Positions 43,664 through 48,540 of a DNA stretch of 59,254 bases are shown one piece after another. The notes beneath the pieces are model-generated. The model was not told the origin of the DNA and did not search any database. It was given only the letters and a program-made list of their open reading frames with translations. Each line of letters begins with the position of its first letter. The stretch's first letter is position 1. Position numbers and translations under genes: made by a program. Origin of the DNA: an uncultured Staphylococcaceae bacterium (lineage in GTDB: Bacteria; Bacillota_I; Bacilli_A; ML615J-28; CAG-313); assembly GCA_964368275.1 (NCBI GenBank), contig CAYJAQ010000002.1, positions 1-59,254 of the forward strand, given 5' to 3'.

Positions 43664-44601
43664 TATGCCACCTTCTTTTCTTTCTTACTCAGTAAATATG
43701 TTTTTAATAGAGGAAGGGCTAAAATAAAGGTAATAATAATTGCTATTACTAAATTCAAGAAATCAAGAACTTCAAGTTCAATGGCAATCATTTTTAATAA
43801 CTGATAGCAAATACTACCTATAATAACTGAGATGGTAGACCGTAAGAAATCGCGTTTACCAAAGAGAACTTCACCAATAATGATTGATGCCAAGCCAATA
43901 ACTATAGAACCTCTTCCCATCTCGACATTCGCACTTGACATTTTTTGAGCAAATAATGCTCCTCCTAGGGCAACTAAACCATTAGCAATTGCTAAACCTA
44001 AAATAATCATTTTCCCAGTATTGATACCTTGTGCTCGTGCCATTTTTTGGTTAATTCCGGTAGCCCGAACTCCCATACCAATTTCCGTACCAAAGAACCA
44101 ATATAATAAGAAGAAAACAGCTAAAATAATGATAATGATTATGGATACTCTTCCGAAATAATTCCAAAAGATAGTATTAGTGTTACTAGTAAGATTGTTT
44201 AAAAAGCTAGTAAAGCCTGAAAAAATCGTCTTTTTAAATGTTAAGTTAGCTAGTGTTTTTCCAAAACCATTACTTAAACCAAGGACAAATAGATTAATGG
44301 AATATAATCCAGTCATCGATATAATACCTGCCAAGATTGCAGGAATTTTAAGCTTTGTATGCAAAAGGCCTGTAATAATACCTGCCAAGACACCACCAAT
44401 AACTGCTAATACGGTAGCAACAATTGGTGAAATGCCAACAAAGATTAATAAGGCAGCTAGACATGCACCAAAAGGGAATGTTCCTTCTACTGTTAAATCA
44501 GCAACATCAAGTACCCGATATGAAATATATACTCCTAAAGCCAGCAAGCACCATATTAAGCCATTCTCTAAGGCTGACTTTAAAATCTCAACTATAAACA
44601 T
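43663..44601 (-). CDS. ABC transporter permease (COG4120, BPD_transp_2-like)
   Basis: About 9-TM protein. Start and stop codons overlap both neighbours. Confidence 0.85.
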   Translation of the reverse strand: MFIVEILKSALENGLIWCLLALGVYISYRVLDVADLTVEGTFPFGACLAALLIFVGISPIVATVLAVIGGVLAGIITGLLHTKLKIPAILAGIISMTGLYSINLFVLGLSNGFGKTLANLTFKKTIFSGFTSFLNNLTSNTNTIFWNYFGRVSIIIIIILAVFFLLYWFFGTEIGMGVRATGINQKMARAQGINTGKMIILGLAIANGLVALGGALFAQKMSSANVEMGRGSIVIGLASIIIGEVLFGKRDFLRSTISVIIGSICYQLLKMIAIELEVLDFLNLVIAIIITFILALPLLKTYLLSKKEKKVA

Positions 44602-45593
44602 TATTCTATCACTTCATCGGCCTTATTTAGTAATGCTTCCGGAATTGTAATGCCGGCTTGTAAAGCAGCTTTTTTATTTACTGATAATTGAATATCTTCA
44701 AAAGGGCAAGTTACAACCGGTGTATCTGCACAAGTTGCTTCACCTTTTAAAATTTTTGAACCCATACTACCTGTTAATTTACCAAGTGCATGATAGTCAA
44801 TTCCATAAGTAACTGTTCCACCATTATGAACCATACCTGCTTCACCACAAATTGATGGAATACCAGCTTGTCGAAGAATTGGTTCAACTGCTGACATAGC
44901 TGCTGACAAAGTATTATCAGTAGGAATATATAATGCTTCAATACCTTTATTTACTAATGACTGAATTACATCTTGAATATCATTAACAGTATTAATAGTA
45001 GCTTCTTCTACGGCTAAACCAATTGACTCAGCATGTTCAATTGCAATATCAATTTGCACTTTCGAATTTACTTCACTAGATGTATAAATTGTACCAATCT
45101 TTTTAATACTTGGATTTAGCTCTTTTGCTAAATCGATTTGATCAGCAACTGGATTCATATCATGTGTACCAGTAATATTGCCACCAGGTTTTTCATTAGA
45201 TGCAACTAAACCAGCTTCTACTGCATCAGTTACCGCTGTAAAGATAATTGGAATATCACGACCTTGATTTTCCATTTCAGCTTTCAAAGTAATCGCAGCA
45301 GGAGTCGCAATAACAAAAATAATATCACATTTCTTTACTAGTGTTTCCGCAGCAAGCGCTAGATTAGATGGGTCACCTTGAGGGTTTTGATATCTAATAT
45401 TAATGTTCTCGCCGTCAACGAAACCATTCTCTCTTAATCCTTCAACAATGCCAGCTTCTGCAGCATCTAAGGCAGAATGAGTCGCAAGTTTTAAAATACC
45501 AACTTGCGTTACATCATTTTTACAACTTGTTAGTGATAACACAGTTACCATTAGCATAACAACAACAAACAAACTTTTTAAAATCTTTTTCAT
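44601..45593 (-). CDS. ABC transporter substrate-binding lipoprotein (COG2984, ABC_sub_bind; putative Trp/Tyr-type)
   Basis: Lipobox LSLTSC. Start re-set to the ATG at 45593 (GGAGG SD) because the track ORF's N-terminal extension runs through the leader terminator. Confidence 0.85.
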   Translation of the reverse strand: MKKILKSLFVVVMLMVTVLSLTSCKNDVTQVGILKLATHSALDAAEAGIVEGLRENGFVDGENINIRYQNPQGDPSNLALAAETLVKKCDIIFVIATPAAITLKAEMENQGRDIPIIFTAVTDAVEAGLVASNEKPGGNITGTHDMNPVADQIDLAKELNPSIKKIGTIYTSSEVNSKVQIDIAIEHAESIGLAVEEATINTVNDIQDVIQSLVNKGIEALYIPTDNTLSAAMSAVEPILRQAGIPSICGEAGMVHNGGTVTYGIDYHALGKLTGSMGSKILKGEATCADTPVVTCPFEDIQLSVNKKAALQAGITIPEALLNKADEVIE

Positions 45594-45613
45594 AATTTCC
45601 TCCATTAATTTTT

Positions 45614-45658
45614 CAAAATAAAAAGTGTTATTACTCATATCACTATAAGTAATAACAC
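45614..45658 (-). terminator. Attenuator terminator in the leader of the COG2984 ABC operon
   Basis: Minus strand: AGTGTTATTACTTATA-GTGA-TATGAGTAATAACACT (16 bp with one G-U) followed by TTTTATTTT. It ends about 20 nt before the SBP start codon. Confidence 0.85.
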
Positions 45659-45688
45659 TCAAATTCAAAATTAATCTTACTTAATCTT

Positions 45689-45730
45689 ACGAGTTATTAC
45701 TTATAGTGCGATACTATCGTGTAACAACTC
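45689..45730 (-). promoter_or_regulatory. Antiterminator / anti-antiterminator segment of the attenuator
   Basis: CACTATAAGTAATAA (45707-45693) is perfectly complementary to the terminator 5' arm TTATTACTTATAGTG. CGAGTTGTTAC (45730-45720) pairs with GTAATAACTCG (45699-45689). Confidence 0.7.
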
Positions 45731-45764
45731 GCTAAACTTTTCAAAGGAAAAGTCCAAGAGATGG

Positions 45765-45836
45765 TCTAAGCACGACTTTCGCTTGGCAAGTAATAATAGT
45801 AATAATAAGATTGAGTATTAGTTATTTGATTAAACA
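45765..45836 (-). CDS. Leader peptide, 23 aa, six consecutive Tyr codons (MFNQITNTQSYYYYYYLPSESRA)
   Basis: AAAGGAGG SD, 7-nt spacer, ATG. Tyr codons TAT TAT TAC TAT TAT TAC. TAG stop. Lies between a near-consensus promoter and the attenuator stems. Confidence 0.7.
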
Positions 45837-45866
45837 TCGCAATAACCTCCTTTATTATACTACTCC

Positions 45867-45895
45867 CATTATACGCTCATCTTTTCCATAATGCA
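45867..45895 (-). promoter_or_regulatory. Promoter of the Tyr-leader/ABC operon
   Basis: TTGCAT, 17-nt spacer, TATAAT on the minus strand, about 30 nt upstream of the leader ATG. Confidence 0.65.
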
Positions 45896-45941
45896 AGTGT
45901 TTTTTCAAAGAAAACGTTTACTTTGACATTTTTTTCGTTTT

Positions 45942-46673
45942 TTATAGATATCTTTTTAAGAATTCTTTTGTTCTTTCTTGTGTAGGATTACTAAATAATT
46001 GCTTTGGTGCACCTTTTTCAATGATGTAACCATCATCCATAAAGACTACTTCGGTAGACACTTCTTCTGCAAATTTCATTTCGTGGGTAACTACAACCAT
46101 TGTTGTACCACGTGCTGCTAAGCTTTTCATAACATCCAGAACTTCACCAACCATCTCAGGATCAAGTGCACTAGTTGGTTCATCGAATAATACAACGTCA
46201 GGATTCATCGCTAAGCAACGGGCTATAGCGACCCTTTGCTTCTGACCACCTGATAGGGTCTGAACTGGTTGATTAGCATATTCTAACATACCAACAAGTT
46301 TTAAAAGTTCCATTGCTCGTTCAGTTGCATCAGCTTTGTTCATCTTTAGAACTTTCATAGGGCCAACAGTACAATTTTTAATAACTGTCATATTATTAAA
46401 CAGATTAAATGACTGGAAGACCATACCAACTTTTGTCCGAAGTTCATTAATACTTATTTCATTTTTTAATACATCTTTACCACGATAGTAGATTTCGCCA
46501 CCATCTGCTGTAGCTAACATATTAATACAGCGTAAAAGTGTTGATTTGCCGGAACCTGATGAACCTATTATACTAATAACTTCACCTTCATGAACATCTA
46601 AACTAACATCTTTTAGAACTTCTTCATTATCAAATGATTTTTTTAAATTTCTAATACTTAAGATTGTTTCCAT
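45942..46673 (-). CDS. Polar amino acid ABC transporter ATP-binding protein (GlnQ-like)
   Basis: [17 protein letters not shown] and [16 protein letters not shown] at 46673 preferred (AGGTGA SD) over the GTG at 46682. Confidence 0.92.
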
Positions 46674-48342: not shown

Positions 48343-48360
48343 GAAATCACAAAAAATTAT

Positions 48361-48518
48361 CAAGCGCCTCTGCTCATAAAAGCAGGAGTGTTATTGGTGT
48401 TCCCAATAACCCCACGATTTATTTATGCCTAAACAAACCGTTCGGCGATAATTACCTTTCACAAAGTTCTCAGCATGCCTGCTCCCTTTGTTACTTTGAC
48501 GTATCGCTACCTCTATCT
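48361..48518 (-). promoter_or_regulatory. Lysine riboswitch (L-box)-like aptamer
   Basis: Minus strand contains AGAGGTAGCG...AAGTAAC...TGAAAGGTAATTATCGCCGAACGG, a 12-bp P3-like stem, GTGGGG-TTATTGG/CCAATAA-CACTCCTGC, and ...AGAGGCGC. These resemble L-box core blocks (AGAGGnGC, GAGUA, UGAAAGG, GCCGAAG, CUGGGG...CACUGUCA). I could not assign P1 cleanly. Confidence 0.55.
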
Positions 48519-48540
48519 AAAACTATTTTTATTTTTAAGT

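Follow-up and report, generated by a model that had tools for sequence, protein, structure and literature searches.

A stretch of DNA of 59,254 nt from an uncultured Staphylococcaceae bacterium (contig CAYJAQ010000002.1 of assembly GCA_964368275.1), referred to below as the window, carries on its minus strand a leader with six consecutive tyrosine (Tyr) codons, which is probably a classical ribosome-mediated transcription attenuator that reports the supply of tyrosyl-tRNA and controls a tyrosine ATP-binding cassette (ABC) importer. The predicted switch probably turns the importer on when Tyr-charged tRNA is short. With its counterparts in uncultured Bacilli, Acholeplasma-like bacteria and relatives, the leader is likely to represent the first family of Tyr-specific ribosome-mediated attenuators, in which the UAUUAC of the codon run has been copied twice as decoys (segments A2 and A3), the ribosome decides a three-way competition for segment B2, and the codon run predicts the ligand of the importer (a Tyr run with a Glu pocket, a Phe run with an Ala pocket). 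The elements themselves, their conservation, compensatory changes in three helices (P1, A2:B2 and A3:B3) and a tyrosine-type pocket in the binding protein were established computationally; together with ribosome-masked folding and the lack of a matching Rfam family, they support the Tyr-sensing attenuator proposed in an earlier note, which had been made from the letters of this DNA alone.

Between its promoter and the regulated gene, the leader comprises a short open reading frame (ORF) that has a ribosome-binding site and a start codon of its own, six tandem Tyr codons, as proposed (45807-45790), and an intrinsic terminator (45660-45615) upstream of the structural gene (Table 1). The sequence of the ORF was confirmed, with coordinates shifted by one base relative to the earlier note (45837-45766, not 45836-45765), and its Shine-Dalgarno site lies 8 nt, not 7 nt, from the ATG. 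The promoter is present and its -10 hexamer is perfect, "near-consensus" being a generous description since the -35 hexamer agrees with TTGACA at only three of six positions; with this weak -35 the leader promoter was not listed by a consensus promoter scan. Related leaders display a TTGCAT, TTGCAA or TTGACA hexamer plus TATAAT at equivalent positions.

The 277-nt leader has a minimum free energy (MFE) of -75.7 kcal/mol, compared with -48.7 +/- 4.4 kcal/mol in shuffles (z = -6.1), and uses an 8-nt unit five times: in A1 (UUAUUAC, present twice in the Tyr run), A2 (GUUAUUAC), B2 (GUAAUAAC), A3 (GUGUUAUUAC) and B3 (GUAAUAACAC), the last being followed by a U run. The GTGA-capped terminator, formed by A3 and B3, contains 17 pairs at 45660-45623 where 16 bp had been claimed, and is followed by TTTTTATTTT, leaving about 20-21 nt to the ATG of the binding-protein gene, in line with the claimed distance. 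Both alternative pairings proposed at the outset proved to be slightly longer than described: the antiterminator B2:A3 joins CACTATAAGTAATAAC (45708-45693) to the perfectly complementary GTTATTACTTATAGTG (45656-45641) over 16 nt instead of 15, and the sequestering helix A2:B2 joins GCGAGTTGTTAC (45732-45721) to GTAATAACTCGT (45700-45689) over 12 bp, including G-U pairs, instead of 11. In addition, AAGTAATAA is complementary to the Tyr run (TTATTACTT), and the core of this A1:B2 helix can be paired in 16 to 20 of the 20 leaders described below, which bears out the suggested role of the Tyr codons in the pairing network. The antiterminator thus shares A3 with the terminator, and A2:B2 and A1:B2 compete for B2. 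Between A1 and A2 lies hairpin P1, which encloses the final leader codons and the stop codon in its loop and has a U-rich tract on its 3' side. A perfect tandem duplication of GTAAGATTAA (two copies, 45671-45690, minus strand) is located in the spacer between B2 and A3 and contributes to the apical hairpin that is predicted for the antiterminator; this duplication was not found in related leaders.

A search for Tyr-rich ORFs upstream of related genes, as the earlier note had advised, yielded 20 distinct leaders in total by three routes (related loci are designated by L and a number). In a genome scan, one genome per species was used and alignment of the binding protein gave 80 loci, the upstream regions of which were searched for Tyr-run ORFs; these were present at five loci (for example MMTMNSTNRHYYYYYYFPSVSR and MKKIFNSYFYYYFYYPRT), the carriers being metagenome-assembled genomes (MAGs) labelled Bacilli, Mollicutes or Acholeplasmataceae, plus one labelled Bacteroidales. 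A motif count over the 80 loci placed the RNA element in those same five only. The second route was a pattern built from RNA segments only, GTAATARC-N15-45-GTTATTAC-N2-22-ATAACACNTTT (B2..A3..B3), from which the leader ORF was excluded and which occurs once in the window and never in shuffles. It gave 14 metagenome matches, of which one was a chance match within a gene and two lacked upstream sequence; all of the remaining 11 possess an ATG-initiated ORF with UAUUAC repeats in the Tyr frame and the same binding-protein gene on the 3' side, and stems conserved in the absence of the ORF or of the Tyr run were not seen among them. Thirdly, the eight closest binding proteins, selected by protein similarity alone, were traced to their contigs, and all eight were found to be preceded by a Tyr-rich leader ORF (for example MLNQNSTFRQFYYYYYFPSEARN and MMNLTYGQYYYYYYFPRESRK). 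Since these nearest homologs are only about 55% identical to the window protein (42-56% over the leader-bearing set), the shared leader must be old. Related loci also share the downstream gene order of binding protein, permease and ATPase. A chance ORF in an AT-rich spacer next to an ordinary terminator might be imagined, as the window is AT-rich and strings rich in TAT and TTA are common in it; it is vanishingly improbable, as six consecutive TAY codons were found once in the 59-kb window and in none of 100 shuffles, and it is contradicted by the recurrence of the whole arrangement in 20 distinct leaders whose binding proteins have diverged so far.

The 20 leaders were compared for features expected of a translated ORF. 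A GGAG-type Shine-Dalgarno site precedes the ATG by 5-10 nt in 19 leaders, the stop codon lies within the P1 loop in 19, and each of the 20 runs contains four to six Tyr codons, plus Phe. The N-terminal residues diverge, while the run remains Tyr through interchange of TAT and TAC, with some Phe. The other frames of UAUUAUUAC would encode Ile-Ile or Leu-Leu, and the frame used is always that of Tyr. In 17 of the 20 leaders the Pro codon at the start of P1 precedes the stop by exactly six codons, with varying residues in between, which suggests a constraint on the position of the terminating ribosome relative to P1. The five core pairs of P1 (CCAAG:CUUGG) are retained in all 20 leaders, and two exceptions in the codons, CUAAG in L087 (Leu for Pro, C-G to U-G) and CCAGG in L101 (A-U to G-U), keep the pair through G-U. 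For these reasons the conserved Pro-Ser/Arg after the run reads as a constraint on the RNA, not on the peptide. This bears on the idea of a nascent-peptide arrest leader of the TnaC/Erm type, in which YYYY(F/L)P would stall the ribosome and the signal would be free tyrosine, or a different small molecule, instead of tRNA charging. A conserved Pro directly after the run, at a fixed six-codon distance from the stop, would fit such a peptide, and Pro-containing arrest motifs are known. We consider it highly unlikely, given that RNA pairing explains the Pro-Ser/Arg codons in every leader (including L087 and L101), that the peptide outside the run is not conserved, that a run of codons for a single amino acid is the hallmark of charging sensors, and that induction of an importer by plentiful substrate matches the predicted logic of the fold poorly.

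For the base-pair counts the 20 sequences were aligned as anchored blocks without gaps (108 columns), because a whole-leader MAFFT alignment misaligned the variable spacers and was dropped. In the terminator-state structure (P1, A2:B2 and A3:B3), 84% of the cells are paired, compared with 33-52% with slid partners, and 48 cells are compensatory, compared with 25.4 +/- 3.6 in shuffles (reached in 0 of 500). The changes include a flank pair of A2:B2 (columns 45-74: AU:7, UA:5, GC:3 and UG:2 among the 20 leaders) and basal pairs of the terminator, which is present in all 20 leaders (columns 85-106: UA:15, GC:3 and AU:2; columns 86-105: GC:18 and AU:2). For the antiterminator B2:A3 the values are 82% paired against 32-58% for slid partners, and 19 compensatory cells against 11.9 (reached in 1 of 500 shuffles). 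By this comparison of sequences, P1, A2:B2 and the terminator are supported by compensatory change, and the antiterminator more weakly so. At one position in the flank of B2, most leaders have A, and L005, L085 and L020 have U together with matching changes of its partners in A1 and A3, as is expected if B2 alternates between A1 and A3. Most relatives carry a further box, B1 (GGAAAGUA), complementary to the end of the run (UACUUUCC), and the resulting A1:B1 pairing is strong in 14 of the 20 leaders and absent from the window leader, in which a local hairpin replaces the box.

The repetitive design also allows an RNA-only switch to be envisaged, namely a riboswitch or protein-binding attenuator keyed to the UUAUUAC/GUAAUAAC units, for which the ORF would be incidental. 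Three copies of a 7-8 nt unit (A1, A2 and A3) and two of its complement (B2 and B3) are reminiscent of some protein-bound leaders, and the antiterminator is mostly invariant in sequence. We regard such a switch as distinctly unlikely: in all of the 11 leaders found without regard to an ORF and the eight found by protein similarity, the ATG behind the Shine-Dalgarno site sets the Tyr frame instead of the Ile or Leu frames, the stop codon is at a fixed place within P1, no conserved multi-helix junction or pocket-like core is apparent, and the amino acid of the leader follows the specificity residue of the binding protein (see below). Known RNA families gave no match either. At E <= 10, a search of positions 45400-46100 against Rfam returned no T-box and only miRNA-type chance matches far below their gathering scores; at the gathering threshold, no known family in the whole window overlaps the leader and no T-box is found there; and the 18 related leaders searched contain no T-box or other relevant family, in agreement with the earlier statement that the T-box consensus is lacking and leaving no known riboswitch over the same stems in these leaders. 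The covariance models of the Rfam leader families (Trp, Phe, His, Leu and Thr leaders, and the leu/phe leader) likewise produced no match for the window leader.

Returning to the ribosome-mediated attenuator, the effect of ribosome position was modelled at equilibrium by folding transcripts cut before B3 with a 28-nt ribosome footprint masked around each A-site codon, a fold with ribosome-covered codons having been recommended in the earlier note. For the window leader the probability of the antiterminator, P(B2:A3), was 0.00 without a ribosome, 0.83 when Tyr codons occupied the A site, and dropped from 0.13 at the Pro codon to 0.00 at the stop. With the ribosome stalled, the predicted fold pairs A2 and its loop with the distal leader codons (GCGA and GUCGUG), the stop region and the 3' arm of P1, freeing B2. 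In all 20 leaders P(B2:A3) for a ribosome on the run equalled or exceeded that for a ribosome at the ORF end (Wilcoxon p = 2e-6). These are equilibrium values, and the choice made in the cell is kinetic. A simple his-like relay (A1:B1, B1:A2, B2:A3) was considered and rejected, as the window leader has no A1:B1 and complementarity between B1 and A2 is too weak; because of this failure, and because of the constrained folds, A2 is described here as neutralised by the distal leader and the 3' arm of P1.

Evidence on the substrate comes from the binding protein. Its best relative in the PDB is CD0873 of C. difficile (6hni, E 1.2e-60), the closest solved relative, which shares both selectivity residues although the identity is only moderate. 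CD0873 was crystallised with tyrosine, and of 20 amino acids only tyrosine stabilised it (PMC6816091). Its Glu-263, which hydrogen-bonds the tyrosine hydroxyl, is replaced by Ala in both VC_1101, a Phe-binder, and SP1069, a Trp-binder; its Tyr-279, which sterically excludes Trp, corresponds in SP1069 to a Gln by which Trp is accommodated (PMC6816091). Residues E251 and Y267 of the window protein align to Glu-263 and Tyr-279, so that a PF04392 fold is combined with Glu at the Tyr-hydroxyl position and Tyr at the Trp-excluding position, and the protein looks tyrosine-specific. Nothing was found on the regulation of CD0873 itself. Among 101 loci compared, all 26 with a Tyr leader have Glu and Tyr at the two specificity positions, and Ala at the Tyr-hydroxyl position occurs in two loci only, both from Leptolinea and both with a leader carrying a run of Phe codons (MGMQNIHSFFFFFFFATPHKVVQREFFA); across the aligned loci the codon run of the leader tracks the pocket residue. 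The question of whether the importer is a broad aromatic transporter, with a leader sensing Tyr plus Phe, arises from the Phe codons interleaved in many relatives (FYYFYYF, FFYYFYFYF) and from the range of ligands (Tyr, Phe or Trp) bound by PF04392-type proteins (PMC6816091). For the window this is very unlikely, its run consisting of six pure Tyr codons and its protein having kept the Glu that bonds the Tyr hydroxyl, with which CD0873 bound only tyrosine of the 20 amino acids (PMC6816091).

Three side observations concern other pockets and leaders in this protein family. The two Leptolinea (Chloroflexota) loci (L017:2843-2985 and L027:2843-2985) encode seven Phe codons in the leader followed by a GC-rich terminator, the 5' arm of which is complementary to the leader codons (GUUGUGCAG); for this Phe leader, ribosome-masked folding did not discriminate between ribosome positions. 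Asp replaces Glu at the Tyr-hydroxyl position in L015, L016, L018, L019, L023, L025 and L028 (Veillonella) and in L071, and in those of the Asp-type loci (Veillonella, L071) that were scanned, no leader ORF or Rfam element was found upstream. In an Oscillospiraceae MAG (L045:2485-2640), a homologous binding protein whose N-terminal linker is long and acidic is preceded by a short ORF (MFVKKSAVCAHSFYFYYIRGDVLA), which has a strong Shine-Dalgarno site, and then by a GC-rich terminator; this may be an independent leader for Tyr/Phe whose RNA sequence is unrelated.

For the window attenuator these data can be assembled into a mechanism, in which translation of the leader, stalling, the folding order and the precise relay by which A2 is neutralised are inferred. 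Transcription would start from the promoter at 45896-45868, and the 23-codon leader would be translated as it is made. With Tyr plentiful, the ribosome would pass the six Tyr codons and reach the stop inside P1, either A2 (GUUGUUAC) or the Tyr run A1 (UUAUUACUU), now exposed, would capture B2 (AAGUAAUAAC), and A3 would be free to form the terminator with B3, halting RNA polymerase about 20 nt short of the binding-protein gene. The A2:B2 helix, holding B2 away from A3, would thereby block the antiterminator, and an RNA that is not translated would also adopt the terminator state. With Tyr-tRNA scarce, a ribosome stalled on the Tyr run would mask A1 and open P1, the freed distal leader codons and the 3' arm of P1 would pair with the A2 region, and B2 would pair with A3 over 16 bp, so that no terminator forms and the importer operon is transcribed. 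P1 and its U tract might in addition serve as a pause site synchronising RNA polymerase and ribosome, or as a first terminator.

Several observations weigh against this attenuator or limit its reach. Most antiterminator pairs are invariant and their support comes mainly from conservation and a few flank changes, and the shuffle control for the pair counts could be beaten by relatedness alone. The way in which A2 is neutralised varies among leaders, the GGAAAGUA box B1 being missing from the window leader. In the equilibrium scan, just 10 of the 20 leaders show a difference above 0.3 between the ribosome states, and L098-L101 favour the antiterminator at equilibrium for any ribosome position, so that kinetics must matter there. 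About 35 nt separate the stop codon from A2, and a terminating ribosome cannot mask the next segment directly, unlike in trpL. As regards the substrate, the correlation of Phe run and Ala pocket stems from the single genus Leptolinea, and several relatives mix Phe codons into the run, where specificity may be aromatic and not strictly for Tyr.

The textbook leader-peptide attenuators respond to Trp, Phe, His, Leu, Thr and Ile/Val, and outside the Firmicutes tyrosine control is exerted by protein repressors. Seliverstov et al. (PMC1262725) place tyrosine under T-box control and, for the aminoacyl-tRNA synthetase genes of Firmicutes, report no classical attenuation. A full-text literature search, which reached subscription papers only in part so that an earlier report is possible, found no tyrosine leader peptide or attenuator, in keeping with the earlier note. 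Its view that leader-peptide attenuation is uncommon in Firmicutes also stands, with the qualification that precedents exist: attenuators with His leaders have been predicted by comparative genomics for Erysipelotrichales, Peptostreptococcaceae and the Bacillus cereus group (PMC9413887), and a Phe upstream ORF is described from Acholeplasma (PMC8632094). The earlier statement that this importer family is a T-box target elsewhere holds only for the more distant streptococcal trpXYZ (PMC9382623); upstream of 20 homologous binding-protein loci from other lineages no T-box was found.

Comparison with these systems places the Tyr leader as follows. The enterobacterial trpL, pheL/pheM, hisL, leuL and thrL leaders (summarised in PMC9413887) have the same components, namely a translated short leader, a codon run, a terminator and a mutually exclusive antiterminator. 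As in trpL-type systems, the regulatory codons are part of the first segment that pairs, and the multi-segment relay resembles that of the his leader. The Tyr leader differs from the enterobacterial ones in its amino acid, in its target (an importer instead of a biosynthetic operon or tRNA synthetase) and in the lack of any sequence or Rfam relationship; it differs from the trpL type in that the stop is too distant for direct masking, the upstream segments A1 and A2 instead competing for B2 and keeping it off A3. The predicted His leaders (PMC9413887) are likewise Firmicutes leader-peptide attenuators with terminator and antiterminator hairpins, have three to five tandem codons, and differ by their His codons, their location upstream of the his biosynthesis operon and their unrelated RNA sequence. 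The uORFC-13-1 motif of Acholeplasma (PMC8632094), from a neighbouring lineage, also consists of an upstream ORF with aromatic codons (Phe) and then a terminator, and controls aromatic amino-acid metabolism; by its description it is set apart as a different motif, with Phe codons and upstream of the biosynthesis gene aroF. The Trp T-box of S. suis trpXYZ (PMC9382623) precedes a homologous PF04392 importer and also reports tRNA charging through a terminator and an antiterminator, whereas its 461-nt RNA binds uncharged tRNA-Trp directly by a UGG specifier and the proposed sensor of the Tyr leader is a ribosome translating Tyr codons.

A conserved Tyr leader would fill in a missing amino acid among leader-peptide attenuators, and would indicate that poorly sampled, T-box-poor lineages of Bacilli use ribosome-based sensing for uptake as well as for biosynthesis. 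Like the specifier of a T-box, the leader could provide an independent substrate label for transporters now called "putative tryptophan/tyrosine" or "sugar-family", a label which agrees here with the structural specificity residues, and the compact design from one repeated 8-nt unit may offer a tractable model for multi-way strand-exchange switches. The Tyr leader challenges no principle; its interest is for specialists in RNA regulation and for transporter annotation.

Table 1. Features of the predicted Tyr attenuator and of the importer operon in the window.
Feature	Position	Strand	Details	Basis
Cre-like (LacI-family-type) palindrome	45909..45923	-	AAAGTAAACGTTTTC; 12 nt 5' of -35	
Promoter	45868..45896	-	-35 TTGCAT 45896-45891, 17-nt spacer, -10 TATAAT 45873-45868	
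Shine-Dalgarno site of leader ORF	45846..45853	-	AAAGGAGG; 8 nt to ATG	
Leader ORF	45766..45837	-	MFNQITNTQSYYYYYYLPSESRA; 23 codons, ATG at 45837, stop TAG 45768-45766	
Segment A1 (Tyr run)	45790..45807	-	TATTATTACTATTATTAC = TAT TAT TAC TAT TAT TAC; proposed sensor	
Hairpin P1	45754..45786	-	CCAAG (Pro-Ser codons, 45786-45782) : CUUGG (45758-45754)	MFE fold
Local hairpin	45736..45753	-	ACUUUUC-CUUU-GAAAAGU; replaces the GGAAAGUA B1 box of relatives	MFE fold
Segment A2	45721..45732	-	GCGAGUUGUUAC; 5' arm of A2:B2 hairpin	MFE fold
Segment B2	45689..45708	-	CACUAUAAGUAAUAACUCGU; partners A2 (12 bp), A3 (16 bp, antiterminator), A1 (9 bp)	
Intrinsic terminator hairpin	45623..45660	-	17 pairs; A3 45660-45644, loop GUGA, B3 45639-45623	Terminator scan
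Terminator U run	45615..45624	-	UUUUUAUUUU	
Regulated gene 1, lipoprotein substrate-binding protein (PF04392)	44601..45593	-	Tyrosine-type pocket	Pfam E 4.5e-72, 243 bits
Regulated gene 2, permease (BPD_transp_2)	44601-43663	-		Pfam, ORF list
Regulated gene 3, ABC ATPase	43663-42851	-		Pfam, ORF list
Operon-closing terminator	42852-42837	-		Terminator scan

The ATG of the binding-protein gene (45593) is preceded by GGAGG. Against the TrpX equivalog model NF041285 (NCBIfam), the window binding protein scores 284 bits, under the curated cut-off of 390. The cre-like palindrome has counterparts in related leaders, a TGTAAACGTTTAC or GTAAGCGTTTTC box being located 12-16 nt 5' of the -35 hexamer in 14 of the 20 (the window, L005, L020, L044, L074, L084, L085, L087, L089, L091, L092, L099, L102 and L104), and may represent a second, DNA-level control of the operon, possibly of the catabolite type.

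A neighbouring amino-acid ABC operon (SBP_bac_3, permease and ATPase; 48350-45942, minus strand) stops 46 nt ahead of the promoter of the Tyr leader. It is headed by a lysine riboswitch (RF00168, 70 bits; 48354-48523, minus strand) and has a perfect promoter, TTGACA-17-TATAAT (48569-48541, minus strand). Two amino-acid importers adjoin each other at this locus, each with its own RNA switch.

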